Part shown: positions 10,280 through 61,459 of the stretch, one piece after another
Layout of the letters: each line of letters begins with the position of its first letter
How positions within the stretch are numbered: the first letter of the stretch is position 1
Origin: Candidatus Poribacteria bacterium
GTDB lineage: Bacteria; Poribacteria; WGA-4E; PCPOR2b
Assembly: GCA_965208325.1 (NCBI GenBank)
Contig: OZ242326.1
Coordinates: 2,655,363 to 2,719,362, forward strand
Length of the DNA stretch: 64,000 nucleotides
Direction of reading: 5' to 3'
Made by a program: the position numbers and the translations under genes
The notes under the pieces: generated by a model
Databases searched by the model: none
Told to the model about the DNA's origin: nothing
The model's input: the letters and a program-made list of their open reading frames with translations, nothing else

Positions 10280-10304
10280 TTCTAATTGTAAAAACGAGCG
10301 CCAT

Positions 10305-11444: not shown

Positions 11445-11643
11445 ACTTCTAGAGCGCATCAGCAATTTTCACGCGGCACAAACTTGCGCTCTCTCGGAAA
11501 AAGCCTTCTTATTCGCCTTAAGGAGGCATTCCATTTCAACAGGAGGAGGATTGTCATTCTGACTCAATACAATGCTCAACGCTTCGGCGTTATTGATTTG
11601 GTGCGTATGACTTCCTGAGAGAGCGACATTTGTAAGAGAGGAG

Positions 11644-12069: not shown

Positions 12070-12234
12070 GGCTATATGCGGTTCATCGTGCGCTCTGGAA
12101 TCGTGGGGTACGTTTACCGTGCCCCACAATACCCTTTACGATCTCTCGCGTAAAATTTATGGCGGTCGCCATGCTGTAAATCGTTGAGGGAAGGTATCAG
12201 TCAATCACATCGAAATTTCTACGGCGAAATTGTT

Positions 12235-17740: not shown

Positions 17741-17923
17741 AAAAGGATATAAAACATTTGAGCATTAAAGGACGAACGCGAGCCGTCTGTCTCCACACTC
17801 GCAAAATCTACGTGATTGCGATCGATGTTGACGCCGAGGGGTTTAGTGTCAATTGGGTAAAGAAGAAACCAGGTGCAATCTTTGCATTTCTAGACTGAAA
17901 ATCTAATTGGGAGATGAGGTATT

Positions 17924-18676
17924 ATGCCAATTAAAACTTTCCGATTCATGATTGTATTCTTGGAAATCATTGTTGTGTTTGGACGATTGTGTACGGCGGG
18001 CACGTGGATAGACGATTTCAGTGACCCAACCCTTCGAGATTGGGGGGGCGGATTGTTAAATGACGAGGTTAGAGCAACTGTTGTTGATGGTCAATTTAAT
18101 TTCAGTGGAAAAAAACAAGGAGCAAATCATAGAATGACGAATTGGGAATTAGGGGAAATCCAAGATTTTTCGCTTGAGTTGAAGTTTATGGTTAGAAACG
18201 TCCGAAATCCAATGGATAGCGGTTGGTCGGTTCAATATACCGCCTTTAACGAAAAAACGATGGACTTGGAAGGGATAGCGGACTTTGGGTTTAGATATGC
18301 ACTAGGAGCTAATGTAGAACCTAATGTTGCGTTTGTAACGATTATTTGGCGGTTGCCGGCGAACAATCCACAAATCGGGAAGTTCAAGGAAATAGCCCGC
18401 TTTGCATACGAAAATGAGGTCTGGTACACGTTGAAGATTGAGCGCGAAGTGAACCGATACCATTTTTGGATTGGAAATATTGGTTTAATCACAGAGGATG
18501 ATTCTCTGACTAATGGTTCAATTGGGTTCCACTTTTATGGAAGGTGTAACATCTGGTTAGATGACTTAATTGTGACGGGTCACGATGTGCCCGATGGAGG
18601 GCCCGGCGTTTTGCAAGTCAAAGCCTTAGCAGAGAAATTAACGACTACCTGGGGAAAGCTGAAAGCACGGAACTGA
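17924..18676 (+). CDS. hypothetical secreted jelly-roll-like protein
   Basis: 250 aa with an N-terminal signal. Its 3' end is duplicated as a remnant at 16876-17060. Confidence 0.55.
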   Translation: MPIKTFRFMIVFLEIIVVFGRLCTAGTWIDDFSDPTLRDWGGGLLNDEVRATVVDGQFNFSGKKQGANHRMTNWELGEIQDFSLELKFMVRNVRNPMDSGWSVQYTAFNEKTMDLEGIADFGFRYALGANVEPNVAFVTIIWRLPANNPQIGKFKEIARFAYENEVWYTLKIEREVNRYHFWIGNIGLITEDDSLTNGSIGFHFYGRCNIWLDDLIVTGHDVPDGGPGVLQVKALAEKLTTTWGKLKARN

Positions 18677-18719
18677 CTGAAACCGTTCAGATGAGGAGCG
18701 AACCTAGATGTAATTAACA

Positions 18720-19290
18720 TTGATATGGGCAACGGTATTGGGAATTTTACTTGTTTGCATCGTCAGGGGTGGAAATACAGACAATCCCATTGGAGTAGAT
18801 GAACCGAAATTACTAACCGATACGCCGACGGAAAGCGTCCCCCCAATTCTGGGAAGTCGGCGTTATATGGAGATATTTTGGTTTAGGGATGGAGAAGAAA
18901 TAAACCGGACAGGTGTGAACAGTGCCGGGCGGCTTAGTCGCTGGGTACCGATTATCCTGACATTGGTGTCGGATGGAATTTTTGACGTAGTAAGCAAATA
19001 TCCCATTGGAGAGTCGGTCGCATACAAACCGAAGCTTGAATGGTTGGCTTGAACATGTCCAAGAAACTGTTGATGCCTTCCGTGGTAAATATCACATCAG
19101 CGCGAATGAAATCCGGTTCAACCTAGTTCAACCTAATCGTAACGAGTGTAAAGCCAAAGAAAGCACCGAAATTGATTCAGAATTTGACACTCTGAATTCT
19201 GGTATAATGATGGAGGAGCGCTGGATTATTCCCTCACTGACGGTGGGAATCACCTTGAATTAAGAAGGGGAAAAGGGGAATACAATACAT
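18720..19290 (+). pseudogene. frameshifted paralog of lipoprotein gene 17102-17740
   Basis: GGNTDNPIGVDEP...PPILGSRRYMEIFWFRDG, then FRGKYHISANEIRFNLV and LDYSLTDGGNHLEL appear in three different frames, implying at least 2 frameshifts. Confidence 0.75.
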
Positions 19291-19380
19291 GGTGAAATTC
19301 ATCCATCGTCGATCAGAAGCCGAATAGCATTTCAGTATTTTAGATAGAAACCAAGATTGCACCCGCGATTAAGAATATAC

Positions 19381-20409
19381 ATGGTGAAAGCATCAACGCA
19401 AATCTCTATCATCATTTCTGCGTTCAACGAAGCCCCAACCCTCAAATCTCTTTATCATCAGATTCGAGATGTGATGGGGATAATTGGGGCGCCATACGAG
19501 GTTATCTTCGTTGACGATGGCAGCACGGACGGTTCCTTCGGCATCATGCAGGAGCTTTATCGTCTCCATCAAGACTGGGCGTCCGCGCTGGCAGTTGCCC
19601 CAAGCCGTTCAATTCAAGAATTTGAGGAGAATCAAACCCACGCAACATCCCAAGTTATCGTCATCCAATTTCGACGCAATATGGGCAAGGCGACCGCTTT
19701 GGCAGCGGGGTTTGCGCGTGCAATAGGAAAAATTGTCATTACGATTGACGCCGATTTGCAAGATGACCCAAACGAAATTCCAAACTTGTTGGCAAAAATT
19801 GACGAAGGGTACGATGTTGTATCCGGTTGGAAAACCAATCGTCAAGATTCTTGGTCTAAAGTGTTGCTCTCAAGAATCTTTAATTGGGTGGTCTGTTTGT
19901 GTACGCATCTGGATCTCCACGACATCAACTGTGGATTCAAAGCCTATAGGCGCCGAGTAATTCGGGAACTCTTGGTGTACGGAGATCGACATCGGTTCCT
20001 GCCGATTTTAGCTCACCAACATGGCTTTCGGGTCACAGAAGTGCCCGTGAAACATCAGCGGCGACAGTACGGCAGATCGAAATATGGCTTTGAACGTATA
20101 CCCCGCGGCTTTTTGGATTTGTTGAGCATTCTCTTTCTCAACCGATACTTGAAACGCCCGCTCCACTTCTTTGGGGTACTGGGATTCTTATGCCTGATCA
20201 GCGGCACAGTAATTAACATTTACCTCACCGTATTGTGGTTTGTTCAAGATGGCATTGGGTTTCGTCCCCTGCTCATGTTGGGTATTTTGTTGATGATTTT
20301 AGGGCTGCAGTTTCTTTCCATCGGATTTTTGGGTGAGATGCTTACTAACGCCTTTGAGCGTTTAGATCGTCGCTACCCTATCGAAAGGGTGCTCGAACAA
20401 GAGGAATAA
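19381..20409 (+). CDS. GT2 polyprenol-phosphate glycosyltransferase (DPM1/ArnC/GtrB-like) with C-terminal TM helices
   Basis: ISIIISAFNEAPTL...VIFVDDGSTDGS...NMGKATALAAGFARAIGKIVITIDADLQDDP motifs, with 2-4 C-terminal TM segments. Confidence 0.85.
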   Translation: MVKASTQISIIISAFNEAPTLKSLYHQIRDVMGIIGAPYEVIFVDDGSTDGSFGIMQELYRLHQDWASALAVAPSRSIQEFEENQTHATSQVIVIQFRRNMGKATALAAGFARAIGKIVITIDADLQDDPNEIPNLLAKIDEGYDVVSGWKTNRQDSWSKVLLSRIFNWVVCLCTHLDLHDINCGFKAYRRRVIRELLVYGDRHRFLPILAHQHGFRVTEVPVKHQRRQYGRSKYGFERIPRGFLDLLSILFLNRYLKRPLHFFGVLGFLCLISGTVINIYLTVLWFVQDGIGFRPLLMLGILLMILGLQFLSIGFLGEMLTNAFERLDRRYPIERVLEQEE

Positions 20410-20418
20410 CACGAAAAC

Positions 20419-21393
20419 GTGATTTCCATCATTATCCCGACTTACAATCGAAAAGATGAACTCGAAGACTTACTCCCCTCGCTCAAGAATCAGAAGTGTT
20501 CGATCGCTTTTGAGGTTATTGTTGTGGATGACGGTTCGACGGACGGAACGCGAGAACTACTAAAGAAACTAGCCGAAGACTGGAATGGAAGATTGCGGTT
20601 TTTTGAGCAAAATCATGCTGGACCGGGGGCTGCTAGGAATCTGGGAATCAAACACGCTCAAGGCGATATCTTAGCTTTTACCGATTCAGATTGTATTGCA
20701 CCACGCGGATGGTTGAACAAGCTGACCTCGGTTTTCGACAACCCGCAAGTTGGAGCGGCTGGCGGCCCTGAGTTGGCACCAACCGATGATTGTTTGCCTC
20801 GAAGGTGCCAGAGTTACGTAATGACGGCATTTCTCACCACCGGCGGGCTGCGGGGAAGGAAGGGAAAGAAACTTGGAGTTTATTATCCGCGTGGATTTAA
20901 TATGGCTGTCCGAAAGCACGTCGTTGATGCGGTTGGAGGAGTTCCTAATCGATTCCAAGGGGAAGATATTCTCTTAAGTTTAAAAGTAAAGCAGATGGGT
21001 TACACCCTCGAATATGTGCCGGATGCAGCAGTTTATCATCACAGACGTGCAACGTTGAGCGGTTATTTTAGGCAACTTTACCGAATGGGAAAGGCGAGAG
21101 TCGAATTGGCTTATCTGCACAAATCCTTGTTGGAAGCGGTATACATGTTGCCTGCGCTCGTACTCCTAATTTCCATTTCGCTAAGCGTTGGCGCGTTTTT
21201 CTCTGAAACGCTTTTTAAGATTGCTGCAGGGGGAATGATAATAGCGTTAGTTTTTCTTACTGCCGTCGGTATTGATAGCACAATCCGTCTGAAAACGCTC
21301 AAGGCTTTTGGGATTGTGCCCTTTCTGTTTATCACACAACAGACAGCCTATGGGTTGGGAACCATCGTCGCTGCATTAAGGAAACAAGTATGA
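20419..21393 (+). CDS. GT2 family glycosyltransferase with C-terminal TM helices
   Basis: ISIIIPTYNRKDEL...VIVVDDGSTDGT...FTDSDC (DxD) motifs. Confidence 0.85.
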   Translation: MISIIIPTYNRKDELEDLLPSLKNQKCSIAFEVIVVDDGSTDGTRELLKKLAEDWNGRLRFFEQNHAGPGAARNLGIKHAQGDILAFTDSDCIAPRGWLNKLTSVFDNPQVGAAGGPELAPTDDCLPRRCQSYVMTAFLTTGGLRGRKGKKLGVYYPRGFNMAVRKHVVDAVGGVPNRFQGEDILLSLKVKQMGYTLEYVPDAAVYHHRRATLSGYFRQLYRMGKARVELAYLHKSLLEAVYMLPALVLLISISLSVGAFFSETLFKIAAGGMIIALVFLTAVGIDSTIRLKTLKAFGIVPFLFITQQTAYGLGTIVAALRKQV

Positions 21394-22307
21394 AGAAATT
21401 CTCCTTTCGAAGGGAAATTTTAGAAAACCATAATCGGTTGCAGGGCGGCACCCGCCTTGAGAGGAATTTCGATGTAAAACTCAATAGTGCCGATCCGCTT
21501 GTGAGCATTATTACGATTTGCCTTAACGCCGAAAAGACCATTGAACAATCCATCCAATCAGTAATTAACCAGACCTACAATCCCATCGAACACCTTATTA
21601 TTGATGGCGGCTCAACGGATTGTACCGTGGAAATCCTAAGAAAATACGATAACCGGATTGACTATTGGGTAAGTGAACCTGACGATGGGACCTCCGATGC
21701 GATAAACAAGGGAATACAGTCGAGCCGCGGCCAGCTGATTGGAATATTATGCGCCGATGACTTTTATGAAAGAAACGCAGTGGAAACCATTATCGGAAAG
21801 ATTTCAGCGGCAACACCTAAAATCTATCATGGCGATATAACGCGAATTGATGCCGATACAGGCGAGAAAACCTTCCTGCAAAAGCCGCCCGAAGACTTAG
21901 AAAAGTTGTTCCAAGGCTGTGCCGTAAATATACTCGCTACCTTTGTGGATCGGCGGATTTTCGAAAAACACGGTTTGTTTAGCGGCGACTATAAATTAGC
22001 CAACGACCACGAATTCCTACTGCGGACATTTACAGCGGGTGTGGAGTTCAGATACATCCCAAGGAATATTACCTTCATGCGTGAAGGTGGGAGGAGTCAA
22101 AAGCACTATATCCAGGCTTGCTGGGAATCTTTCAACTTGTCCATCCACTACGGTTGCCCGGTTCCGAAAGCCCTTTTTGTATTTCTCATCACCGTCCTGA
22201 AAAAGGCAGTTGAACGTAGAATTGCGAAGTGGTGTCCCTCTCTACTAAGACGATATGGTAGTTTAAGGTTTCTGTCGCTGAAAAATAGCACGTGGCATGG
22301 CAAATGA
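21390..22307 (+). CDS. GT2 family glycosyltransferase
   Basis: VSIITICLNAEKTIEQSIQSV...IIDGGSTD...ADDFY motifs. Overlaps the previous gene by 4 nt. Confidence 0.8.
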   Translation: MKKFSFRREILENHNRLQGGTRLERNFDVKLNSADPLVSIITICLNAEKTIEQSIQSVINQTYNPIEHLIIDGGSTDCTVEILRKYDNRIDYWVSEPDDGTSDAINKGIQSSRGQLIGILCADDFYERNAVETIIGKISAATPKIYHGDITRIDADTGEKTFLQKPPEDLEKLFQGCAVNILATFVDRRIFEKHGLFSGDYKLANDHEFLLRTFTAGVEFRYIPRNITFMREGGRSQKHYIQACWESFNLSIHYGCPVPKALFVFLITVLKKAVERRIAKWCPSLLRRYGSLRFLSLKNSTWHGK

Positions 22308-22359
22308 GAAGAAGCACTTTTGAATAGTCTCAACCCTCCGATGAAATGAACGCCAATCA

Positions 22360-23295
22360 ATGACACATGTCCTAGTAACTGGCGGCGCCGGCTACATTGG
22401 CGCGGTTCTCTGCGAGCACCTTCTAGCTGAAGGCTACCGGGTAAGCGTCCTCGACAACCTAATGTACCGTCAGGGCAGCCTCTTTCACCTCTGCCTTCAT
22501 CCAGTCTTCGACTTCGTTAAGGGTGATGTCCGAGATGAAGAGCTCATGCGCCGCCTTGTGAAGAAAGCCGATGTGATCATCCCACTTGCAGCGGTCGTCG
22601 GTGCGCCCGCCTGCGATCGAGATCCGTGGCTGGCAAAATCAGTCAATTTGGAAGCAGTGCGGGCGCTAAATCGACTACGATCCTCCCAGCAATTGGTTAT
22701 TTTTCCAACGACTAACAGCGGCTACGGAACGCAGTCCGGCGAGACGTATTGCACTGAAGACACGCCGCTGCAGCCGATTTCGATCTACGGTCAGACAAAG
22801 TTGCACGCGGAGATGGAGATGCTGGACAGCCCCAACAGCATTTCCCTTCGTCTTGCAACAGTCTTCGGTATGTCGCCCCGTATGCGTATCGACTTGCTGG
22901 TGAACCATTTCGTCTATGCAGCGGTTACAGACGGCTATATCGTCATCTTTGAAAAGGATTTCAAGCGCAACTATCTCCACGTCCGCGATGCGGCGGATTG
23001 TTTTATTCACTGCATTGAGAACGCAACGCAGATGGTAGGACGCCCTTACAACGTGGGACTGGACGATGCGAATCTATCAAAGATGGAACTGGCGTTAAAG
23101 ATTAAGGAACACGTACCGAAATTTTATCTTCACTTTTCGGAGGTCGGCAGCGACCCTGACCAGCGCAACTACATCGTTTCCAACCAGCGGTTGCGTGACG
23201 CCGGATTTGAGGCGAAGCGTTCATTGGACGATGGGATAAAAGAGTTGCTGAAAGGGTACCGCATGATGGGACGGGCGCCTTTCAAGAATGCCTAA
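22360..23295 (+). CDS. NAD-dependent epimerase/dehydratase (extended SDR)
   Basis: VLVTGGAGYIG Rossmann motif and YGQTK (YxxxK). Confidence 0.85.
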   Translation: MTHVLVTGGAGYIGAVLCEHLLAEGYRVSVLDNLMYRQGSLFHLCLHPVFDFVKGDVRDEELMRRLVKKADVIIPLAAVVGAPACDRDPWLAKSVNLEAVRALNRLRSSQQLVIFPTTNSGYGTQSGETYCTEDTPLQPISIYGQTKLHAEMEMLDSPNSISLRLATVFGMSPRMRIDLLVNHFVYAAVTDGYIVIFEKDFKRNYLHVRDAADCFIHCIENATQMVGRPYNVGLDDANLSKMELALKIKEHVPKFYLHFSEVGSDPDQRNYIVSNQRLRDAGFEAKRSLDDGIKELLKGYRMMGRAPFKNA

Positions 23296-23313
23296 AAGGG
23301 ATAGAATCCCCTC

Positions 23314-23390
23314 TGACAAGGGGGGGTATCTGAATGTGTGTAAATGTAAATGGTCATATTTTAACGACTGATACCCGATGATAATCAGTA
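23314..23390 (+). repeat. approximately 70-bp direct repeat (copy 1) duplicating the 5' region/start of the GHMP-kinase gene; copy 2 at 23706-23778
   Basis: Copy 1 is gggggggtatctgaatgtgtgtaaatg(taaatg)gtcatattttaacgactgatacccgatgataatcag. Copy 2 is ggggggaatctgaatgtgtgtaaatggtgatattttaaggactgataaccgatgataattag. Confidence 0.85.
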
Positions 23391-23391
23391 T

Positions 23392-23679
23392 TTGTAGGTT
23401 GGGTTAAGCGGAGTAAATGAGAGACGCGAATAATGTCGAGTGGATATCGGTATTTGAATTCGTTCGGTGTTTTTCTAAATGTAGCGAACCCAACGCTTTT
23501 GGATATTGCGGGGCGTTTGGTTTATCGGGCGACGTGTGGTTAAGACTATCGCCTTCGCTATTCGCTCAGTTGATCGTTGGGTTACGCTCCCCACATCGGG
23601 TCTTGGACGTCGTTAGGCTTCCAGAGCGAAACGAAAAATTGTACATCATTTCGTGAAATTCGCTCAACCCAACCTACAA
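23392..23679. mobile_element. MITE-like non-autonomous element with 18-19 bp terminal inverted repeats (TTGTAGGTTGGGTTAAGCG ... GCTCAACCCAACCTACAAG)
   Basis: Imperfect TIRs at 23392-23410 and 23661-23679. Inserted between two copies of a 70-bp direct repeat. Carries an internal copy of the dispersed 40-bp repeat (23544-23576). The only ORF is 79 aa with no similarity. Confidence 0.6.
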
Positions 23680-23765
23680 GAAGCTTGACTTGTGAGTAAT
23701 AGCAAGCCTTATCAGGGGGGAATCTGAATGTGTGTAAATGGTGATATTTTAAGGACTGATAACCG

Positions 23766-24818
23766 ATGATAATTAGCAGAACCCCGTTTCGAATCTCATT
23801 CTTTGGCGGAGGGACAGACTATCCAGCGTGGTACCTGCAACACGGCGGTGCGGTGCTCGCCACTACAATTGACAAATACTGCTATCTCACATGTCGATAC
23901 CTCCCCCCGTTCTTCGAGCATCGTATCCGGATTGTCTATTCCCAGATAGAGAATTGCCAGAGCCTAGACGAGATTCGCCACCCCGCCGTCCGCGAAGGCT
24001 TACGGCATGTGAACCTCGACCGCGGCGTAGAGATTCATCATGATGGAGATTTGCCTGCACGAAGCGGAATTGGGTCTAGCTCCGCCTTCACGGTAGGGCT
24101 TTTGCATGCGCTGTACGCCCTCAAGGGTCAGATGTTAAGCAAGAGCCAACTGGCGGAAGAGAGCATTTATATTGAGCAGGAACAGCTCGAGGAGGCGGTT
24201 GGCTCTCAGGATCAGGTGCTCGCCGCTTATGGTGGGTTAAACCATATCTCTTTTTTTCAAAATGGCGAGTTCTCTATCGTCCCAATCACCGTTCCTCCAG
24301 AGCGTATACAGAATCTAAATTCCCATCTGATGCTGTTCTACACCGGCATCAAACGAACCGCATCGGATATCGCCCGCAGTTACGATATAGAGGGCAAGCA
24401 ACAGCAATTGCACATCATGAAGGATTTTGTGGAGGAAGGATTGCTGATTCTGAACAGCGATTCGGACATTACTGCCTTTGGAGAATTGTTGCACGAAGCA
24501 TGGCAGGTCAAGCGCACATTGAGTCCAACGGTCTCCAATTCACGTGTGGATGAACTTTACAATCGTGCACGTTCAGTGGGCGCCATCGGCGGCAAGCTGA
24601 CGGGTGCTGGCGGTGGCGGATTCATGCTGCTTTTTGTGCCGCCCAACAGACAAGAAGAGGTGAAGGAGACGTTCAGTAATCGAATCCATGTGCCGTTCAG
24701 ATTTGAATCATCTGGCAGCCAGATTATCTTTTTTAATCCCGAAGAGAATTATGCCGCTGAAGCGCAAGCGCGCGCTACAGAACCGATTCAACCTTTTCAA
24801 GAGTTAGGTCATCTTTAG
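23766..24818 (+). CDS. GHMP-family sugar kinase (D-glycero-D-manno-heptose 7-phosphate kinase HddA / fucokinase-like)
   Basis: N-terminal TPFRISFFGGGTDYP, the PARSGIGSSSAFTVGL ATP-binding motif, and GAGGGGF. Confidence 0.8.
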   Translation: MIISRTPFRISFFGGGTDYPAWYLQHGGAVLATTIDKYCYLTCRYLPPFFEHRIRIVYSQIENCQSLDEIRHPAVREGLRHVNLDRGVEIHHDGDLPARSGIGSSSAFTVGLLHALYALKGQMLSKSQLAEESIYIEQEQLEEAVGSQDQVLAAYGGLNHISFFQNGEFSIVPITVPPERIQNLNSHLMLFYTGIKRTASDIARSYDIEGKQQQLHIMKDFVEEGLLILNSDSDITAFGELLHEAWQVKRTLSPTVSNSRVDELYNRARSVGAIGGKLTGAGGGGFMLLFVPPNRQEEVKETFSNRIHVPFRFESSGSQIIFFNPEENYAAEAQARATEPIQPFQELGHL

Positions 24819-24890
24819 AAGGAATGGACGGATACAGAGTAAACATCCCGCCGCTGTCCATACATTGTAAGTGGTAAAGGAGAGACTTCA

Positions 24891-25898
24891 TTGAGCGAAA
24901 CTCGGACCATTCGCCGCGTCCTAATTACCGGAATTAGGGGTTCTGGCGGCAGTTACTTGGCGGAGTATATCGCCGCTAATCACCCAGATGTTGAAGTCCA
25001 CGGCATCTCCCGATGGCACAGCACTTCAACCGATAACCTTTCTGCCATCAAAGAACGAGTGACCCTCCATGAAGCCGACCTGATGGATTTTAGCTCGGTT
25101 TTGGCGGTATTGCAGGATTGTCAACCGGACGCCATCTTTCACCTAGCGGCGCACGCCAACGTGCGAACGTCATTTACGACACCAAACGCAGTTTTGAGCA
25201 ACAATGTATTGGGCACCAGCAATCTTTTCGAAGCGGTGAGGATGGCGCGGCTCGATCCTATTATTCAGTTGTGCAGTAGTTCAGAGGTATACGGTCTAGT
25301 GGATTCTGAGTCGGTGCCAATCACGGAAGATACGCCGTTGCGGCCGGTTAGTCCTTATGCGGTTTCGAAGGTAGCTCAAGATTTGTTGGGTTGGACCTAT
25401 TTCATCAGTTACAACATGCGCATTATACGCACGCGCATGTTCACCTATCTGAATCCGCGTCGCACCGACCTGTTTGCGACTGCATTTGCAAAGCAGGTTG
25501 CTTGGATTGAACGCGGGCTTCAGAAGGAACTGGTGCATGGCAACCTAGATTCGGTCCGCACCATCATTGATGCGCGGGATGCCATGCGGGCATATTGGGA
25601 AGCGATTTTGCGCTGCAAACCCGGCGAAGTCTACAACATTGGGGGCCCCACTTCTATGACGGTTGGCGAGTTTCTGGAACGTCTAGTTGTTTTGAGTGAC
25701 GTACCGATTCCAAGACGATGTGCGCCGCACTTGCTTCGACCGGCAGATGTGACGCTTCAAATTCCTTGCGTCGATAAATTTGTGCGGGAAACCGGATGGC
25801 AACCTGTACACACCTTTGAGGAAAGCCTTACGGAAATGCTCGCGTTTTGGCGGTGGGAAGCGGACAAGGCTGCGCACCAGGCTTCAGGAATGGGATAA
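24891..25898 (+). CDS. GDP-sugar 4,6-dehydratase (GMD/Rmd family)
   Basis: LITGIRGSGGSYLAEY, EVHGISR, SSSEVYG and PYAVSK (YxxxK) align with GDP-mannose 4,6-dehydratase. Confidence 0.8.
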   Translation: MSETRTIRRVLITGIRGSGGSYLAEYIAANHPDVEVHGISRWHSTSTDNLSAIKERVTLHEADLMDFSSVLAVLQDCQPDAIFHLAAHANVRTSFTTPNAVLSNNVLGTSNLFEAVRMARLDPIIQLCSSSEVYGLVDSESVPITEDTPLRPVSPYAVSKVAQDLLGWTYFISYNMRIIRTRMFTYLNPRRTDLFATAFAKQVAWIERGLQKELVHGNLDSVRTIIDARDAMRAYWEAILRCKPGEVYNIGGPTSMTVGEFLERLVVLSDVPIPRRCAPHLLRPADVTLQIPCVDKFVRETGWQPVHTFEESLTEMLAFWRWEADKAAHQASGMG

Positions 25899-25941
25899 CG
25901 ATAGGTATTTCAACAATCAGGAAACTGACGAAGAAAAGACC

Positions 25942-26883
25942 ATGGTTGAGAATTTTTATCGTGCCCTGTACCGAATTCGACGGGTAGAGGAAGAAATCGC
26001 AAGAATTTACCCCGCCGACATAATCAAAAATCCCATCCATCTCTCAATCGGTCAAGAAGCTGTAGCTGTCGGCGTTTGCGAGGCGCTGCAACCGAGCGAC
26101 GTTGTTTTCGGCACCTACAGGAGCCATGCGCTCTACTTGGCGAAAGGCGGGAATTTGAACAAGATGATCGCGGAATTGTTCGGCAAGGTTACGGGATGCG
26201 CCAAGGGGAAGGGCGGGTCAATGCACCTGATTGACACTGCCGCCGGGGCCATGGGCACCTCCGCTGTTGTGGGGACGACCATTCCGCTAGCGGTCGGTTA
26301 TGCCTACGCCTTGAAGTTAGAGGGGAAAGACAGCATTGTTGCCAGCTTTTTCGGGGATGGTGCGGTTGAAGAAGGGGTTTTCCACGAGAGTCTGAACTTT
26401 GCAGCACTCAAGAGCGTGCCTATCCTCTTCATCTGTGAAAATAACGGCTTCGCCATCCATTCGCGTCAATCCGAACGCCAGCCGATGGACAACATCTGCG
26501 AACGTGCGCGCGTTTATGGGATGCCTGCGGAGCGAATTGAGGATAATGACATCTTCGAGATATACGAACGGGTAAAGCGTGCAAGCAGTGAAATTCAAAA
26601 TGGGAGGGAAGGTCCCAGACTCTTCGAGTGTATGACACATCGGTGGAGGGAACATGTGGGACCTAATGAAGACTTCGATGCAGGCTACCGATCCAGAAGC
26701 GAAGCGCAACCTTGGTTTGAAAGTGACCCGCTCAAATCCATCGGCGCGGGCATGGAACCCGTCCGGCGCGGACAAATTGAAGTGGACGTCGAGTCGGAAA
26801 TTTACGAGGCATTCGCATTTGCTGAAAATAGTCCGTTTCCCGATAAACACGAACTCTACACCGATGTGTTCACGGAGGGGTAG
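25942..26883 (+). CDS. thiamine-diphosphate-dependent dehydrogenase E1 component, alpha subunit
   Basis: GQEAVAVG, YRSHA, GKGGSMH, and the TPP-binding motif GDGAVEEGVFHESLNFAA...ICENNGFAI. Start at the Met at 25942. Confidence 0.85.
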   Translation: MVENFYRALYRIRRVEEEIARIYPADIIKNPIHLSIGQEAVAVGVCEALQPSDVVFGTYRSHALYLAKGGNLNKMIAELFGKVTGCAKGKGGSMHLIDTAAGAMGTSAVVGTTIPLAVGYAYALKLEGKDSIVASFFGDGAVEEGVFHESLNFAALKSVPILFICENNGFAIHSRQSERQPMDNICERARVYGMPAERIEDNDIFEIYERVKRASSEIQNGREGPRLFECMTHRWREHVGPNEDFDAGYRSRSEAQPWFESDPLKSIGAGMEPVRRGQIEVDVESEIYEAFAFAENSPFPDKHELYTDVFTEG

Positions 26884-26884
26884 C

Positions 26885-27952
26885 ATGGCGCGTACGTTGA
26901 CATACGCCGAAGCGATTCGAGAAGCCACTAAAAACGAGATGGCGCGAGATTCGTCGGTCATGGTGCTGGGCATCGGTGTCGACGATTTCAATGGTGTTTA
27001 CGGTACCACAACGGGGCTGGTTGAGAAATTCGGAACTGACCGCGTTGTGGATACGCCGCTGTCTGAGGACGCCATGACGGGTGTTGCCATTGGCGCCGCG
27101 CTTGCCGGATTGCGGCCGATTCACGTCCATATCCGCATGGACTTTCTGCTTTTAGCCATGAATCAACTGGTGAACATCGCCGCTAAAAGCCGGTATATGT
27201 ACGGCGGCGCGGTCTGTGTGCCCATCGTGGTTCGTGCCATTATTGGCAGAAGTTGGGGACAAGGGGCGCAGCACTCGCAAGGACTTCACTCATTCTTTAT
27301 GCACGTTCCGGGGCTCAAAGTGGTTGCTCCCAGCACACCCTACGACGCAAAAGGTTGCCTGATTCAGAGTGTCCGGGACGATAATCCGGTGGTGTTTGTC
27401 GAGCACCGCCTGATTCACTATCAGAAAGGGCATGTGCCGGAATCTGACTACACTGTGCCCTTCGGTCAAGCGCGGGTGCTGTCAGAAGGGGGTGACATTA
27501 CACTCGTCGGTATTTCACATATGGCTGCGGAGTGCCTACGTGCTAAACGATACCTCCATGAAATGGGTCTCCGCGCTGAAGTCATAGACCCGGTGTCTTT
27601 AAGCCCCTTAGACATAGATACGATTGTCTCCTCTGTTGAAAAAACCGGGAAACTCCTCGTCGTTGACACCGCCTGGACAACCTGCGGCGCAAGCGCGGAA
27701 ATTATAGTGCAGGTCACAGAGCAGCTAGGCAGTGCAAAAACGGAATGCCGCCGGATGGGATTTGCGCCCGTGACCTGTCCAACCACAAAAAATCTGGAGA
27801 ACCACTTTTACCCGGATGCACAGAAGATAGCAACTGTGGCGTACCGCATGGTTAACGGAGACCGCGCATCTACGGTTGTCGATAGAAATCCCGATTTCTC
27901 AATACCAACTGAGGATTCATCAGAGTCCGTCGAGTTCAGGGGACCTTTCTAA
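26885..27952 (+). CDS. thiamine-diphosphate-dependent dehydrogenase E1 component, beta subunit (transketolase-like C-terminal half)
   Basis: MARTLTYAEAIREA...VMVLGIGVDDFNGVYGTT...DTPLSEDAMTGVAIGAALAGLRP. Start adjacent to the alpha-subunit stop. Confidence 0.85.
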   Translation: MARTLTYAEAIREATKNEMARDSSVMVLGIGVDDFNGVYGTTTGLVEKFGTDRVVDTPLSEDAMTGVAIGAALAGLRPIHVHIRMDFLLLAMNQLVNIAAKSRYMYGGAVCVPIVVRAIIGRSWGQGAQHSQGLHSFFMHVPGLKVVAPSTPYDAKGCLIQSVRDDNPVVFVEHRLIHYQKGHVPESDYTVPFGQARVLSEGGDITLVGISHMAAECLRAKRYLHEMGLRAEVIDPVSLSPLDIDTIVSSVEKTGKLLVVDTAWTTCGASAEIIVQVTEQLGSAKTECRRMGFAPVTCPTTKNLENHFYPDAQKIATVAYRMVNGDRASTVVDRNPDFSIPTEDSSESVEFRGPF

Positions 27953-29127
27953 TGGGAAGACAATACCGGCTTGCCGAACAGACCATTGACGAGGAAGACC
28001 TCCAGGACCTCATCGCGTGGTTAAAGACCAACCCTTGGTTGACCCAGGGAGAAATGGTGCGCGAATTTGAGCGTCTATGGTCAGACTGGCTTGGTGTCAA
28101 GTACGCAACCTTTGTCAATTCCGGCTCTTCCGCCAACCTGTTGATGTACGACGCCGTCTTGTTGTCGGGGAAGTTGCCCAACAAGAAGATTGTCCTCGCC
28201 GCCGTCAGTTGGTCAACCTCCGTTGCACCGGCAATTCAACTCGGCTTTGAGCCGATTTTATGCGAAGCGGACGAAAATACCTTTGGGCTAGATTTGGACT
28301 GTCTGGAACGGCTTTTGAAAGCACATCATCCGGGCGCGGTTCTCATTGTTCATACGCTCGGTGTGCCGAATGACATGGAACCGCTTCTAGCGCTCAAAGA
28401 TCGGTACGGGTTTATCCTGATGGAGGATGCTTGCGCAGCAATTGGATCCTGTTATGACAATCAACCTGTTGGCACCTTCGGGGAGATTAGCACCTTCTCT
28501 TTCTATTACGGTCACCACCTGTCTACAATAGAGGGCGGGATGGTTTGCACGCACGATGAAGCGATTCACGACATTTTGGTTCAGATTCGGAGCCACGGCT
28601 GGGCTAAGGATCTCCCTCCTGAGAAAGCGGAGAAGAGAGCCCGTGAGAACAGCATCATTGCGTTCAATCGCCCATTCACCTTCTACTATCCGGGCTACAA
28701 CCTGAGGTCAACGGATTTGAACGCGCGAATCGGTTTGTCGCAGATGAACAAGATAGATTACGTTGTGAAACGGCGAATCGAAAATCACAACGTCTACCAG
28801 TCGCGGTTTCAAAGCGCAACAGATTTTCATTGCCAACGAAATGACCGTGCAACCATCTGCAGCATTGCCTTCGTGGTTTTGGCTCAATCGCAAGCGCACC
28901 GGGAGAGAATTGCTCACGTCCTTAAAGAATACAAGATTGAGACGAGGCCGCTAGGTGGAGGCAACATGTCACGCCAGCCCTTTTGGGCGAATTGTTATGA
29001 TAGCACCGCTTTTCCCGTTGCTGACCGAATTCACGAGACGGCTTTTCAACTGCCGAATCATCCCAGGCTCAGCCGAGAAGATATCCATTTCATATGCGAC
29101 ACGGTGCTTTCGGTTACAACGGCATAA
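27952..29127 (+). CDS. DegT/DnrJ/EryC1-family PLP enzyme of the sugar 3-dehydratase type (ColD / CDP-6-deoxy-hexulose-3-dehydrase E1-like; catalytic Lys replaced by His)
   Basis: DegT-family fold. The active-site segment reads STFSFYYGHHLSTIEGGMV, with His188/His189 where aminotransferases carry Lys. This is the hallmark of ColD and E1 3-dehydratases. Start overlaps the upstream stop (TAATG). Confidence 0.75.
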   Translation: MGRQYRLAEQTIDEEDLQDLIAWLKTNPWLTQGEMVREFERLWSDWLGVKYATFVNSGSSANLLMYDAVLLSGKLPNKKIVLAAVSWSTSVAPAIQLGFEPILCEADENTFGLDLDCLERLLKAHHPGAVLIVHTLGVPNDMEPLLALKDRYGFILMEDACAAIGSCYDNQPVGTFGEISTFSFYYGHHLSTIEGGMVCTHDEAIHDILVQIRSHGWAKDLPPEKAEKRARENSIIAFNRPFTFYYPGYNLRSTDLNARIGLSQMNKIDYVVKRRIENHNVYQSRFQSATDFHCQRNDRATICSIAFVVLAQSQAHRERIAHVLKEYKIETRPLGGGNMSRQPFWANCYDSTAFPVADRIHETAFQLPNHPRLSREDIHFICDTVLSVTTA

Positions 29128-29342
29128 CACAATAACCACAGGATTTGAGGTAGGTAAGAATATTACCCATTTTTTGATGATGTCCGTCCGACAGAGTATT
29201 GCAGCATCAAACAAATTTAAAAATGTTATATTATTTCACGGTGGGAGGGACATACTTGTCCCGATAATCGGGGCTAGGAAGCCCCTCCCACAGACATAAT
29301 CAATATCTATCTGACGCTGTATTATATAGCTATGACAAAATA

Positions 29343-30866
29343 ATGAAGGATCGAACTATCAAAAACAACGAGCAACTCGATCTAGTATTGGTAAATCCGG
29401 GGAGCCAACGGAAAATCTACCAATCACTCGCATCTACTCTAACCGCTGTTGAACCTCCCGTTTGGGTGGGGCTGCTGGCGACTTTTGTCCGCAATCAAGG
29501 GTTTTCCGTTGCCATCGTTGATGCCAATGCGGAAAACCTAACGCCTGAAGAGACCGCCGAACGAGTCGCCGAGATGAATCCGGTGTTGACAGGGGTCGTT
29601 GTATATGGACACCAACCATCCGCATCGACCCAGAACATGACCGCCGCTGGGGCGATATGCACAGCAGTCAAAAAGCGGTCACCAGCGCTGAAAGTCCTTC
29701 TGGTAGGCGGTCATGCTGCCGCCCTGCCCGAACGAACCCTCAAAGAGGAAACTGCCGACTTTGTTTGCGGCGGGGAAGGGCCCTTCACGGTTATAGAACT
29801 CTTGCAAACGCTCAAATCTGCTCGGAGGGACTATCACATAGTCCGAGGGTTGTGGTATCGGGACAACAATCGTACAATCAAAACAACACCGGCTGCGCCG
29901 CTGGTTAAAGACCTCGACCGTGAAATGCCGTCAATGGCTTGGGACCTTCTACCTATGGAGAAATACCGCGCCCACAACTGGCACTGCTTTGGCGGCCTTG
30001 ACCGAAAACCGTACGCGGCAATCTATACAACTTTGGGATGTCCCTATCATTGCAGTTTCTGCTGCATCCAAGCTCCGTTCAAGAGCGGAGAACAAGCATT
30101 GGGATACAAAACCCGCGTCAACAGCTATCGGTTCTGGCACCCGGATTCCGTCATCGCCCAGATTGACACACTTGTTAAAGATTACGGGGTACGGAACATC
30201 AAAATTGCCGATGAGATGTTCGTGCTCAACCCCAGACATGTGACGGGAATCTGCAACCGGATTATCGAACGTGGATATAACCTGAACATTTGGGCATACG
30301 CCCGAGTGGACACCGTGAAAGCGGAGATGGTGGATGTGCTGAAGCGTGCCGGTTTCAACTGGCTTGCGTTTGGTATAGAGGCTGCCAGCGAGCGCGTGCG
30401 GGACGAAGTGCAGAAAGGGTTTAATCAACAGGACATATACCGGACCCTCGAAGCGGTTAGAGACGCTGGTATCAACGTCATCGGAAATTATATCTTTGGC
30501 TTGCCCGAAGACAATCTGGAATCAATGCAGGCAACTCTAGACCTCGCCCTCGAACTCAATTGTGAGTTCGCCAACTTTTACTGCGCCATGGCGTATCCGG
30601 GTTCCCAACTCTACAACCACGCTTTAGACGCGGGGTGGCCGTTGCCGGCAGAATGGAGCGGCTTTTCTCAACACGCGCCAAACACGCTGCCGCTGCCGAC
30701 GAAGTATCTGTCTGCGTCAGAGGTCTTGCGTTTCCGTGACCACGCTTTTCAAGTGTATTTCAACAGTTCAAAATATCTGGAAATGATTACCGAAAAGTTT
30801 GGTACAGAGACAACAAGTCACATTCGTGAGATGGCGAGTCATAAGCTGGTGCGGCAGTATGCATAG
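29343..30866 (+). CDS. B12-binding-domain radical SAM enzyme (class B radical SAM, probable sugar C-methyltransferase/rearrangement enzyme)
   Basis: N-terminal cobalamin-binding Rossmann-like domain (PPVWVGLLATFVRNQGFSVAIVDANAE) and the radical-SAM Cys box GCPYHCSFCC. Confidence 0.8.
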   Translation: MKDRTIKNNEQLDLVLVNPGSQRKIYQSLASTLTAVEPPVWVGLLATFVRNQGFSVAIVDANAENLTPEETAERVAEMNPVLTGVVVYGHQPSASTQNMTAAGAICTAVKKRSPALKVLLVGGHAAALPERTLKEETADFVCGGEGPFTVIELLQTLKSARRDYHIVRGLWYRDNNRTIKTTPAAPLVKDLDREMPSMAWDLLPMEKYRAHNWHCFGGLDRKPYAAIYTTLGCPYHCSFCCIQAPFKSGEQALGYKTRVNSYRFWHPDSVIAQIDTLVKDYGVRNIKIADEMFVLNPRHVTGICNRIIERGYNLNIWAYARVDTVKAEMVDVLKRAGFNWLAFGIEAASERVRDEVQKGFNQQDIYRTLEAVRDAGINVIGNYIFGLPEDNLESMQATLDLALELNCEFANFYCAMAYPGSQLYNHALDAGWPLPAEWSGFSQHAPNTLPLPTKYLSASEVLRFRDHAFQVYFNSSKYLEMITEKFGTETTSHIREMASHKLVRQYA

Positions 30867-30880
30867 ATGCAGGTGCACGG

Positions 30881-32392
30881 ATGCCTCAAACACTCAAACT
30901 ACATGGCCGCTTGTTGGTCAAAAATACGAGCCTCAATTTCGGGGCGAAGGTGCTGCCCCTTGTTGCAATGGGGGTCACGATTCCGTATGTGATTGAAGGT
31001 TTGGGAACGGCGCGTTACGGGATTTTCACACTCATCTGGGCTGTCATAGGTTATTTCAGCGTCCTTGATTTGGGTTTGGGGAAAGCGACCGCAAAGAAGG
31101 TCGCGGAAGCGATCGGCAGAGGGGAAAGCGCCTCGATTCCGTCTATTGCGTGGACGGCTGTCGTACTTACACTGGGTTTAGGGTTAATTGCAAGCTTCAC
31201 CCTCATGGCGTTCACATCGCTTCTGGTGAACAATGTCTTTCAGGTGGATGCCAACTTGAGCGAAGAGACCCAACAGGTCTTCTACCTTGCTGCGGTCGGT
31301 CTGCTCATCGCACTGGTCAAATCTGCGCTTACCGGGGTGTTGGAGGCGCATCAGCGGTTCGATTTAATCAACCTGGTGGGCGTTCCTTCAAGCTTGCTTT
31401 CCGCGGTTATCCCACCTTTTGTTCTTTATGCAGATGGCGGGCTGCCCGCTATCGTTAGTCTGCTCGTTATCAAAAACGGTTTCGAGCTATTCGTTTTGTC
31501 TTTCCTCTGGTTGAAGGTGTTGCCGTCAGGAGACCGCTTCTTTTCGCTAGATGTGAAAATGAGCCCCGCCCTTTTTTCGTTTGGAGGGTGGTTGACGCTG
31601 CACAACGTCGCGAGTTATATTCTACAATACGTTGAGCGGTTCCTAATTGGCGCGCTCTTGACAATTACAGCGGTCACCTATTACGGCGTTCCTTTCACCC
31701 TCATCAGTGCGTTGACGGTTCTTCCTTCGAGCCTGATGCCTGTCCTCTTTCCCGCTTTTAGCGCCCTTCACCATTCAGATGTCACGAGATTAGAAAATCT
31801 TTTCCGGCGGGCACTGAAATATCTCGTCGTATTGATGGGGCTAGCGGCGACGTTTCTGATGATATTTTCGGAGGAAATCTTGGTATTGTGGATTGGCGAG
31901 GATGGTATCAGAAGCATCAATGTACTTCAGTTCCTCGCTGTGGGATACGTGCTCTCGGTTGTTTCATGGTATTTCAGCACGTTCCTGCAAGGGACGGGCT
32001 ATATTAAAGCGGTGACGGCAATTGCGCTGGCGTTCTTGGCTTTTCAGGTTCCATTCTCATGGGCGTTAATCACGGTGTGGGGAATCGAGGGCGCGGCTTT
32101 GGCGTTCACATTCAGCCGGGCGCTGGTGGTTTTGGTATTCTACTGTACCGCTCGAAGGTTAAATCTGATACATCCTTTGCGGGTGTCCATCGGTAAACTG
32201 GCAAAACTCACCTGCGGGTTTTTGATTATCATTTCAGCAACGGTGTTGCTCAAAATAGTTGTAGGCATACTTCCGTGGTCTATCATTCTGAGCGCCCCTG
32301 TATTCATTGCAAGCACCCTCCTGTTTGGCTGGTATGCCATTCTCACCCATGAGGACAAACGCATGGTGTTGCAGTCGGTAAAGCGAGTCTGA
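30881..32392 (+). CDS. Wzx-type oligosaccharide flippase (MOP/PST family)
   Basis: 503 aa, about 14 TM helices, PST-family N-terminus (NFGAKVLPLVAMGVTIPYVIEGLGTARYGIF). Confidence 0.8.
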   Translation: MPQTLKLHGRLLVKNTSLNFGAKVLPLVAMGVTIPYVIEGLGTARYGIFTLIWAVIGYFSVLDLGLGKATAKKVAEAIGRGESASIPSIAWTAVVLTLGLGLIASFTLMAFTSLLVNNVFQVDANLSEETQQVFYLAAVGLLIALVKSALTGVLEAHQRFDLINLVGVPSSLLSAVIPPFVLYADGGLPAIVSLLVIKNGFELFVLSFLWLKVLPSGDRFFSLDVKMSPALFSFGGWLTLHNVASYILQYVERFLIGALLTITAVTYYGVPFTLISALTVLPSSLMPVLFPAFSALHHSDVTRLENLFRRALKYLVVLMGLAATFLMIFSEEILVLWIGEDGIRSINVLQFLAVGYVLSVVSWYFSTFLQGTGYIKAVTAIALAFLAFQVPFSWALITVWGIEGAALAFTFSRALVVLVFYCTARRLNLIHPLRVSIGKLAKLTCGFLIIISATVLLKIVVGILPWSIILSAPVFIASTLLFGWYAILTHEDKRMVLQSVKRV

Positions 32393-54401: not shown

Positions 54402-54502
54402 CGGCAAATCGTTGCAGCGATTCCGCGTTATTTTATAACCTCGTTTCTGCAATTACTGAGGACGACGTGATTTACGATACTCAACCATCCAGGGCAACTG
54501 TT

Positions 54503-56779: not shown

Positions 56780-56887
56780 CTCCACACAATTGAAGCAAGA
56801 AACCAACCGTTTTAAAAAAACTGGACTCTATGGTTACTGCGTGCGGTATGAATCAGATGCGGCACACCAACATGGAGGGTTATTGCA

Positions 56888-61405: not shown

Positions 61406-61459
61406 GATTGCTCCTCAAATCGCCGCCGCCAATAAACATCAATTGACCTTAATGCCGTT

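Follow-up and report, generated by a model that had tools for sequence, protein, structure and literature searches.

A conserved gene cassette with a predicted route from GDP-heptose to a two-carbon-extended sugar in Candidatus Poribacteria

Results

Gene content of the island

The subject of this work is an island of glycan genes on a 64,000-nucleotide stretch of a Candidatus Poribacteria genome (assembly GCA_965208325.1, contig OZ242326.1, positions 2,655,363 to 2,719,362; hereafter the window), in which genes for a probable heptose-derived nucleotide sugar stand beside a split E1 enzyme of the thiamine diphosphate (ThDP)-dependent kind and a B12-binding radical S-adenosylmethionine (SAM) enzyme. 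Families were assigned with Pfam and NCBIfam profiles and their curated cut-offs, and by best sequence matches in the PDB. Together with open reading frame (ORF) calls, these searches placed all island genes from the first glycosyltransferase family 2 (GT2) gene to the Wzx-like flippase gene on the + strand, closely packed within 19357-32392 (Table 1). All of the genes listed in an earlier note on this DNA were recovered by the family scans and PDB searches, on the + strand and where they had been placed. Two were added to that list, one encoding a short-chain dehydrogenase/reductase (SDR) related to Cj1427 of Campylobacter jejuni and the other a GT-C glycosyltransferase. The onset of the island was moved upstream, to the GT-C gene. 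In a related genome, a paralogous island (L086) reproduces the entire set of genes that runs from the FGE-like gene to Wzx. The true starts of E1 alpha and E1 beta were fixed by comparison with a related locus (L001); a single base separates these two genes, and E1 beta overlaps the ColD-like gene by 1 nt.

Table 1. Genes and sequence elements of the island and its upstream flank, in window coordinates
Feature	Position	Strand	Basis and remarks
FGE-sulfatase-like protein	13979-14860	+	Pfam FGE-sulfatase 4e-57; flanking gene
GT-C (PMT_2/PMT, ArnT-like)	14957-16831	+	Pfam PMT_2 2.5e-12, PMT 9e-8; ~12 hydrophobic segments
Three small secreted/lipoprotein-like ORFs	17102-19052	+	between GT-C and first GT2
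GT2, ArnC/GtrB-like	19357-20409	+	two C-terminal membrane segments (268-330)
GT2	20419-21393	+	Pfam Glycos_transf_2 7e-35; C-terminal membrane segments
GT2, soluble	21390-22307	+	Pfam Glycos_transf_2 8e-25
Cj1427-like SDR (GDP-heptose C4-dehydrogenase homologue)	22360-23295	+	PDB 6vo6/6vo8 E 8e-107
288-bp element	23392-23679	.	ends are 19-nt inverted repeats (23392-23410, 23661-23679)
HddA-like GHMP kinase (heptose-7-phosphate kinase)	23766-24818	+	GHMP N and C domains; NCBIfam HddA best match
GMD/DmhA/Rmd-family SDR	24891-25898	+	best PDB match 7us5 (C. jejuni GDP-heptose 4,6-dehydratase) E 2e-55
ThDP-dependent E1 alpha	25942-26883	+	Pfam E1_dh 3e-58; GDG-X25-NN motif
E1 beta (transketolase-like Pyr and C-terminal domains)	26885-27952	+	Pfam Transket_pyr, Transketolase_C; PDB 3duf_B 220 bits
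ColD-type sugar 3-dehydratase (pyridoxal/pyridoxamine phosphate, PLP/PMP; DegT fold)	27952-29127	+	PDB ColD 2gms E 2e-56, best match
Stable hairpin	29241-29291	+	-32.3 kcal/mol, z -5.4; inside 215-nt gap 5' of the radical SAM gene
Class-B-type radical SAM enzyme (B12-binding domain)	29343-30866	+	Pfam B12-binding, Radical_SAM
MOP-family (Wzx-like) flippase	30881-32392	+	Pfam Polysacc_synt_3, Polysacc_synt, MatE; many membrane segments

Enzymes of the core

The Cj1427-like SDR is the island protein nearest to any characterised enzyme. It is 53% identical to C. jejuni Cj1427 (named from the PDB entry title), the next PDB family following at 2e-23, and this close, full-length similarity sets it clear of the other extended SDRs. 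The motifs GGAGYIG (residue 8) and YGQTK (residue 143) are present, with Y143 and K147 invariant in 22 homologues; its AlphaFold2 model was poor (pLDDT 55) and served merely for reading the PDB entry title. One Cj1427-like protein labelled Candidatus Poribacteria is 88% identical to it, and exact look-ups with a protein 100% identical to it and with the window radical SAM enzyme returned no record. Cj1427 oxidises GDP-heptose at C4 by a ping-pong mechanism in which alpha-ketoglutarate becomes L-2-hydroxyglutarate, and combined in vitro with a ColD-like C3-dehydratase it gives GDP-3-deoxy-4-keto-heptose (PMC10680097).

The predicted 3-dehydratase, as it had been called in the earlier note, was confirmed as a ColD-type enzyme by its best PDB match and its active site. 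When it was aligned to ColD ('FSFYYGHHLSTIEGG' against 'SSFYSHHIATMEGG'), its His188 fell on His188 of ColD, at the position of the Schiff-base lysine of aminotransferases, which is marked by the mutant entries 3b8x and 3gr9. The two proteins are 391 and 390 aa long. The C-x-C-x7-C iron-sulphur (Fe-S) motif of E1/RfbH-type dehydratases is absent, and the RfbH model scored 230 bits against a cut-off of 423.

The kinase reached 139 bits with the HddA model, whose cut-off is 600, and represents a divergent subfamily. Heptose-phosphate kinases take the first four places among its PDB matches (E 1e-37 to 1e-32), and it is 57-75% identical to kinases that adjoin GmhA, GmhB and HddC-like genes in orthologous cassettes; in these, GmhB scored above its NCBIfam cut-off, and GmhA and the HddC-like gene under theirs. 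Because the cassettes often adjoin genes for GmhA, GmhB and an HddC-like guanylyltransferase, the substrate is best taken as GDP-heptose, which upholds the heptose suggested earlier. The observation that the window has no nucleotidyltransferase also held, with Pfam over most of the larger ORFs and with tblastn using HddC relatives over the whole window. Relatives of HddC, GmhA and GmhB gave no tblastn match in the whole window at E<=1, including the 470-bp gap between the Cj1427-like and kinase genes, where remnants were sought.

Both E1 subunits fell short of the models for housekeeping pyruvate dehydrogenase (PDH). E1 alpha scored 289 bits with TIGR03182 (cut-off 394), its best PDB match being human PDH E1 alpha, and E1 beta scored 303 bits with NF006667 (cut-off 321) and 293 with another PDH model (cut-off 454). 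The scanned ORFs of the window and the annotated recurrent neighbours of the cassette contained no E2, E3 or lipoyl protein. With scores below the PDH cut-offs, no E2/E3 nearby and translational coupling to sugar genes, the pair is set apart from housekeeping PDH, in support of the earlier note. E1 alpha/beta-type ThDP enzymes ('alpha-KADH2') acetyl-branch NDP-keto sugars in actinomycete pathways, and KbDH does so on a keto sugar with pyruvate in vitro (PMC12247030). The island has the layout of this type, with a split E1 that carries the ThDP motif amid genes for a deoxy-keto NDP-sugar (ColD-like and Cj1427-like).

The radical SAM enzyme contains CPYHCSFC at residue 233, with C233, C237 and C240 invariant, and its Pfam B12-binding score (58 bits, cut-off 32) places it in class B. 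Its top NCBIfam models were HpnJ (165 bits, cut-off 578) and BchE (149 bits, cut-off 481), and every named family remained under its cut-off. A search of Foldseek with its AlphaFold2 model (pLDDT 80) returned TsrM, AprD4, OxsB, MgmA, CysS and TokK as neighbours. Thousands of homologues were found, the best of them 70-91% identical and with 60-77% identity maintained across phyla; the enzyme belongs to a separate, tightly conserved family.

Distribution of the cassette

The gene grouping was followed in two scans. In species-representative genomes, loci were chosen by the radical SAM gene; 80 loci were returned, and counts by gene were taken from the 33 with at least 8 kb on both sides. In metagenomes, loci were chosen by E1 beta, which removes the bias towards the radical SAM gene, and 25 had at least 4 kb on both sides. 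The core (Cj1427-like SDR, HddA-like kinase, E1 alpha/beta, ColD-like enzyme and radical SAM enzyme) recurs as a group in over 100 loci spread across at least 12 phyla. The 80 loci came from Desulfobacterota and other 'delta' groups, Poribacteria, Cyanobacteria, Binatia, Acidobacteriota, Nitrospirota, Omnitrophota, Chloroflexota, Planctomycetota, Verrucomicrobiota, Myxococcota and others, and their recurrent order is Cj1427-like, (HddC-like, GmhB, GmhA, NUDIX), kinase, Fcl-like SDR, E1 alpha, E1 beta, ColD-like, radical SAM. The Cj1427-like enzyme appears to be the conserved entry to the 4-keto sugar.

All 33 of the loci chosen by the radical SAM gene contained a ColD-like gene; E1 alpha and E1 beta were each present in 31/33, the kinase in 28, the Fcl-like gene in 25, the Cj1427-like gene in 23 and the guanylyltransferase in 20. 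When E1 beta was the bait, E1 alpha was found in 25/25 loci, the ColD-like gene in 24, the kinase in 22, the Cj1427-like gene in 17 and the radical SAM gene in 16, being missing from 9. The grouping is far beyond chance. Because of the counts in the loci chosen by E1 beta, the broader unit is read as heptose genes, 3-dehydratase and E1 alpha/beta, with the radical SAM gene frequent but optional. In the same loci the Fcl-like SDR followed the presence of the radical SAM gene (10/10 against 6/15; Fisher p 0.003, not corrected for phylogeny).

Individual loci illustrate this variation. The paralogous island L086 lies on a 4.89-Mb contig (3324444-3345379) of the close relative that also carries L001. 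It encodes an FGE-like protein, a GT-C, three GT2, Fcl-like and Cj1427-like SDRs, the kinase, E1 alpha, E1 beta, a ColD-like enzyme and Wzx; its proteins from the first GT2 to Wzx are 77-92% identical to those of the window, the GT-C 34%. It has neither a radical SAM nor a GMD-like gene and is thus a natural variant 'minus rSAM'. A complete cassette is present in a cultured organism, Solidesulfovibrio magneticus RS-1, on plasmid pDMC1 (L084; 22514-39663 of the record; genes DMR_RS21980-22020), where the order is GT2, GT2, radical SAM, NUDIX, kinase, E1 alpha, E1 beta, Fcl-like, DegT, Cj1427-like, guanylyltransferase, GT-C, L-2-hydroxyglutarate oxidase and a GmhA-like SIS protein. The oxidase gene is lhgO, and its place inside the cluster fits a recycling of the Cj1427 by-product.

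Plasmid p5 of Azospirillum argentinense Az39 (L085) carries a radical SAM homologue (51% identical) beside a split transketolase, which replaces E1 alpha/beta, and Azospirillum lipoferum 4B has Fcl, radical SAM, kinase and NUDIX genes together; both are partial or variant versions. The cyanobacteria Floridaenema and Tumidithrix also carry the cassette. The surroundings of the A. argentinense locus contain a second cobalamin-dependent protein, a methyltransferase and many transposases.

A second arrangement (guanylyltransferase, DegT, E1 alpha, E1 beta, Fcl, Cj1427-like, radical SAM, kinase) was observed in L012, L015, L022, L024, L034 and L044, which come from Omnitrophota and 'delta' metagenome-assembled genomes (MAGs). 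Its DegT protein is ~25% identical to that of the window, and the L044 member has a histidine at the lysine position ('FSFYAAHLVCSGEGG'). One further locus (L077, CAZVZK010000090.1) is labelled uncultured Alcaligenaceae; the named close homologues of its radical SAM protein are all from MAGs of Gemmataceae or other Planctomycetota, most matches being unnamed, and the contig may be mis-binned.

Proposed pathway

Taken together, we judge it probable that the cassette turns GDP-heptose into a 3-deoxy, two-carbon-extended higher sugar, by means of the ThDP-dependent E1 and the B12-type radical SAM enzyme, and that this sugar is passed through a lipid carrier to the envelope. The reading builds on enzyme families, active-site motifs and a conserved gene association that are evident from protein and gene comparison. 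In the first step, GDP-heptose would be formed by the HddA-like kinase and by three enzymes whose genes lie outside the window, GmhA, GmhB and a guanylyltransferase. The Cj1427-like SDR would then oxidise C4 while converting alpha-ketoglutarate to L-2-hydroxyglutarate, and in a third step the ColD-type enzyme, with PLP and glutamate, would remove the C3 hydroxyl to give GDP-3-deoxy-4-keto-heptose, with release of alpha-ketoglutarate and ammonia. The second and third steps would also be metabolically linked, since ColD chemistry releases the alpha-ketoglutarate that Cj1427 chemistry consumes. The chemistry of these three steps has been demonstrated in other organisms.

The later steps, and the acceptor, are predicted. 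In the fourth, E1 alpha/beta would decarboxylate pyruvate and deliver the C2 acyl anion to the C4 ketone, as a heptose/GDP counterpart of YerE. Such a carboligase role is suggested because of the YerE precedent, the alpha-KADH2 precedent and the near-constant pairing of 3-dehydratase and ThDP enzyme, and a transfer of a C2 unit is also indicated because in A. argentinense a split transketolase stands in for E1 alpha/beta. The two-carbon branch of the earlier note is thus a reasonable role for the pair by the precedent of acetyl-branching alpha-KADH2 enzymes (PMC12247030). Optional further tailoring, the fifth step, would fall to the radical SAM enzyme and to the SDR encoded next to it, which is GMD/Rmd-like here and Fcl-like in most relatives. 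In the sixth, the ArnC/GtrB-like GT2 would load polyprenyl phosphate, the Wzx-like protein would flip the product, and the GT-C would transfer the sugar to an envelope acceptor.

For the radical SAM step itself we lean towards a non-methylating radical reaction coupled to the SDR, either ring closure or deoxygenation, because the gene is optional and is tied to the SDR slot; C-methylation, which had been proposed earlier, is nearly as likely. The class-B enzyme on which that proposal rested is indeed present, and methylation is one among several options that profiles, PDB matches and Foldseek leave for it. Methylases make up most of the class-B radical SAM enzymes characterised so far, and some of them act on sugar carbinol carbons (GenK, Fom3), which counts in favour of methylation.

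Several observations weigh against the pathway as drawn. The nearness of the radical SAM enzyme is mixed, the methylases TsrM, MgmA, TokK and CysS standing about as close as the non-methylases AprD4, OxsB, HpnJ and BchE (the latter two by profile), and PDB sequence search and Foldseek did not separate the two groups. The site of C2 addition is set by analogy, and an aldehyde elsewhere on the sugar could take the place of the C4 ketone. GDP as the carrier in this genome is drawn from relatives, HddC, GmhA and GmhB being absent from the window. The GMD-family SDR keeps all dehydratase motifs, so that a 6-deoxy product is still possible. With regard to co-transcription, the radical SAM and Wzx genes are set off from the ColD-like gene by 215 nt that contain a strong hairpin, and promoter and terminator scans of the window gave signals at chance level. 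Between lineages, no orthology could be detected for the GT-C genes. The island enzymes are assigned by sequence, and in all carriers the product sugar is a prediction.

Alternative readings

The scheme of the earlier note held that a true GDP-heptose 4,6-dehydratase and the ColD-type enzyme make a 3,6-dideoxy-4-keto-heptose, which receives a C2 branch from E1 and a C-methyl group from the radical SAM enzyme; methylated at C7, for example, the product would have the constitution of a 3,6,8-trideoxy-4-C-(1-hydroxyethyl)-octose. C. jejuni HS:5 makes 3,6-dideoxy-heptoses by a 4,6- then 3-dehydratase route. The window SDR finds its best PDB match in the C. jejuni heptose 4,6-dehydratase and shares the motif types of 7us5 and 1db3 (SSSE at 129, YAVSK at 156, PRR at 189), including an RR loop that the Rmd reductase lacks. 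Methylases are also among the structures nearest to the radical SAM enzyme. Against this, the SDR scored 191 bits with 7us5 and nearly as much, 188 bits, with the Rmd reductase 2pk3, which does not set it apart from Rmd, and it reached 137 bits with TIGR01472, under the cut-off of 415. GMD-like genes are rare in the cassette and occupy exactly the slot of the Fcl-like reductase, the two never occurring together (11 against 52 loci). A Cj1427-like C4-dehydrogenase would be redundant in this scheme, yet all GMD-like loci in which both genes could be scored contain one. The top profiles of the radical SAM enzyme, HpnJ and BchE, are those of non-methylases, and a methylase would leave its association with Fcl unexplained. 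The scheme as a whole is therefore possible at a distinctly lower probability than the pathway proposed above. Its ColD-type 3-dehydratase stands; what it had overlooked is the Cj1427-like dehydrogenase. Because of the exclusivity with the Fcl-like gene and of the co-occurrence with Cj1427-like genes, the GMD-like protein may be a reductase and the product 3-deoxy rather than 3,6-dideoxy. We favour a reductase in the Fcl slot by a little over even chances and regard a 4,6-dehydratase as the minority case, to be taken seriously.

A second alternative reads the radical SAM enzyme and the SDR as a pair like AprD4/AprD3, which would convert a heptose diol (e.g. at C6/C7) to a carbonyl and then reduce it, with net deoxygenation; in another branch of this idea, E1 alpha/beta would take the new aldehyde in a DXS-like chain extension. 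By sequence, the radical SAM enzyme has its closest PDB match in AprD4, a sugar 1,2-diol dehydratase (E 3e-16), which also gives the top target-normalised TM-score (0.74), the Fcl-like SDR is statistically tied to the presence of the radical SAM gene, and aldehydes are better ThDP acceptors than ketones. On the other side, the AprD4 model of NCBIfam gave 81 bits against a cut-off of 500, and AprD4 is not known to use cobalamin, whereas the N-terminal domain of the island enzyme matches Pfam B12-binding. Moreover, E1 cassettes without the radical SAM gene exist, which makes E1 independent of an acceptor made by that enzyme. We consider this alternative unlikely.

A hexose substrate (GDP-mannose, or a sugar salvaged through a fucokinase-like GHMP kinase) would accord with the lack of GmhA, GmhB and HddC in the window and with a kinase that lies under the HddA cut-off and also matches fucokinase domains. 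It is nevertheless improbable: fucokinase trails the four best solved relatives of the kinase, all of them heptose-phosphate kinases, by 20 orders of magnitude, orthologues of the kinase (57-75% identical) stand beside GmhA and GmhB, and Cj1427 is heptose-specific in C. jejuni. Finally, it is highly improbable that the pair is the E1 of an ordinary dehydrogenase for 2-oxoacids or acetoin, placed in a glycan locus by chance and without a role on the sugar, for although its nearest solved structures are the E1 of PDH and of branched-chain 2-oxoacid dehydrogenase (BCKDH) and the ThDP motif and active-site histidine are kept, both subunits score under the PDH cut-offs, E2, E3 and lipoyl proteins were not found in the scanned window ORFs or annotated neighbour families, the genes are translationally coupled to the ColD-like gene, and ColD-like and heptose genes accompany the pair in 24-25/25 loci chosen by E1 beta alone.

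A possible route to carbocyclic sugars

The biosynthetic origin of caryose is stated to be unknown (PMC9092360). As a speculative extension of the proposed pathway, to which we give a low probability, the conserved core may be the biosynthetic route to caryose-type carbocyclic higher sugars. The nine carbons would then be the seven of heptose plus C2, the 3-deoxy position would be due to the ColD-like enzyme, the 9-deoxy methyl group would come from the pyruvate-derived acetyl group, and the C4-C8 bond would be made by ThDP addition at the 4-ketone. A C7 radical generated by the radical SAM enzyme would attack C8 and close the cyclopentane, much as has been suggested for HpnJ and calditol synthase. 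On our own reading of the configurational prefixes, caryose is inverted relative to D-glycero-D-manno-heptose at C5 only, which would fit an Fcl-type epimerase. A homologue search seeded with the L077 radical SAM protein returned only Planctomycete-like MAG proteins and no match from Burkholderia/Trinickia or Bradyrhizobium. The idea that erwiniose arises by C7 methylation of a heptose was dropped, since published work assigns both erwiniose and caryophyllose to YerE-type enzymes, which start from CDP-3,6-dideoxy-4-keto-glucose together with longer 2-oxo acids (PMC9306805).

Glycosyltransferases and export

The first GT2 protein has a catalytic domain followed by two C-terminal transmembrane helices, the architecture of the ArnC/GtrB type, and scored 198 bits with the ArnC model of NCBIfam, under its cut-off of 529. 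It is a putative polyprenyl-phosphate sugar synthase, and membrane-anchored GT2 genes of a similar kind adjoin the cassette in other loci. The GT-C is a likely periplasmic transferase with a polyprenyl-phosphate sugar as donor; a GT-C gene is also found in L086 and in the S. magneticus cluster, the S. magneticus protein having no significant pairwise similarity to that of the window. Neither an initiating phosphoglycosyltransferase nor a Wzy polymerase was found among the island genes scanned. Because an ArnC-like GT2 and a GT-C are present and these two were not found, assembly looks like a polyprenyl-phosphate and GT-C route rather than a classical Wzx/Wzy O-antigen system.

Intergenic elements and flanking genes

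The hairpin upstream of the radical SAM gene is GC-rich ('GTGGGAGGG...CCCTCCCAC') and has no T-tract behind it, and the gap that contains it is 95% identical to the same gap of L001. No Rfam match was obtained in the window. The hairpin may be a repeated element of the lineage, resembling repetitive extragenic palindromic (REP) sequences. A similar palindrome was seen in the gap between the Cj1427-like and kinase genes of L001 and L086, and within the window the hairpin occurs once.

The 288-bp element occupies the site of HddC, GmhB and GmhA in other cassettes. It is bracketed by a 57-nt direct repeat (23332-23388 and 23720-23776), which duplicates the 5' end of the kinase gene, and looks like a small insertion akin to miniature inverted-repeat transposable elements (MITE-like). 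In related genomes merely a short GGTTGGGTT...AACCCAACC hairpin is seen at this site.

At the upstream end, the FGE-like gene has a 42% identical copy in the same position of L086 and is possibly a member of the duplicated island. The three small ORFs between the GT-C and the first GT2 had no Pfam match and no counterpart in L086, and are not conserved with the cassette; the first and third of them (17102-17740 and 18720-19052) are paralogous (40% identical, E 2e-20), the latter apparently truncated. Further upstream (9284-13668), DUF1573 (Ig-like) proteins are encoded, along with a fusion of a C39 peptidase to DUF1573. Two large WD40-repeat proteins are encoded at 227-1972 and 52155-54401, and four more large ORFs (54293-63511), maybe similar, follow the second of them. 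Taken with the DUF1573 and FGE-sulfatase genes, these proteins are in keeping with a genome of the Poribacteria kind.

Discussion

The island shares with the capsular GDP-heptose pathways of C. jejuni homologues of the kinase, the C4-dehydrogenase (53% identity), the 4,6-dehydratase family and the PLP-dependent 3-dehydratase, the Fcl-like reductases that occur in related cassettes, and the presumed starting nucleotide sugar. It differs from those pathways, as they have been described, by counting the ThDP-dependent E1 alpha/beta and the B12-radical SAM enzyme among its core. The mode of export is another difference: C. jejuni capsule export is by ABC-transporter, whereas GT2, GT-C and Wzx-like proteins are encoded here.

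The logic resembles that of yersiniose, erwiniose and caryophyllose, in which an acyl anion is added to C4 of a 3-deoxy-4-keto nucleotide sugar and the product is reduced; in the yersiniose A pathway this involves DdhA-D, the ThDP carboligase YerE, acting on a 3-deoxy-4-keto sugar, and the reductase YerF (PMC9306805). YerE-type enzymes are single-chain, acetolactate-synthase-like and act on CDP-hexoses, whereas the island has a split E1 alpha/beta and, presumably, GDP-heptose. Its 3-deoxygenation is of the ColD type, with no Fe-S cluster and no reductase, rather than of the E1/E3 type, and a radical SAM enzyme is added. A closer likeness in the enzyme itself is offered by the alpha-KADH2 systems of aldgamycin, kosinostatin and kibdelomycin (KbDH-alpha/beta), where a split PDH-E1-like enzyme is encoded in a deoxysugar cluster with no E2/E3 (PMC12247030). 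Those systems, likened here by description, serve TDP-deoxyhexoses in actinobacterial secondary metabolism, whereas the island combines heptose genes with a predicted envelope glycan and recurs in many non-actinobacterial phyla.

As in the colitose pathway (GMD, ColD, ColC), a GMD-family SDR and a ColD-type dehydratase with His188 would act on a GDP-sugar; unlike there, no ColC-type enzyme was assigned, the sugar would be heptose instead of mannose, and the 4-keto group would probably come from the Cj1427-type dehydrogenase. The radical SAM enzyme has the B12-binding architecture of sugar-related families (HpnJ, calditol synthase and PtmC, which are proposed to form cyclopentanes; AprD4; the GenK type), and falls far under all family cut-offs. 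The delivery genes recall the Arn (ArnC/ArnE-F/ArnT) and Gtr (GtrA/B/C) systems, in which a membrane-anchored GT2, a flippase and a GT-C lie beside nucleotide-sugar tailoring genes; in contrast to these, the GT2 is distant from ArnC (198 against 529 bits), the flippase is of the MOP/Wzx type and two further GT2 genes are present.

Literature searches on heptose with radical SAM and thiamine or ThDP, and on carbocyclic sugars, did not turn up an account of the cassette. Tailoring of heptoses and the branching of sugars by ThDP enzymes have both been reported before; we could not find a description of the two together with a dedicated and very highly conserved family of B12-type radical SAM enzymes, at a locus for envelope glycans that is spread over at least twelve phyla, and this combination is apparently new. 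The proposed substrates can be reached with published C. jejuni enzymes, and cultured carriers exist. If the pathway is as predicted, the cassette would define a route to C9/C10 branched or carbocyclic sugars and would add new ThDP carboligases and radical SAM chemistry on nucleotide sugars. It may also account for orphan natural sugars such as caryose, and should that reading be true, the envelopes of Planctomycetota, Cyanobacteria, Poribacteria, Desulfobacterota and others would commonly contain carbocyclic or related C9/C10 sugars.

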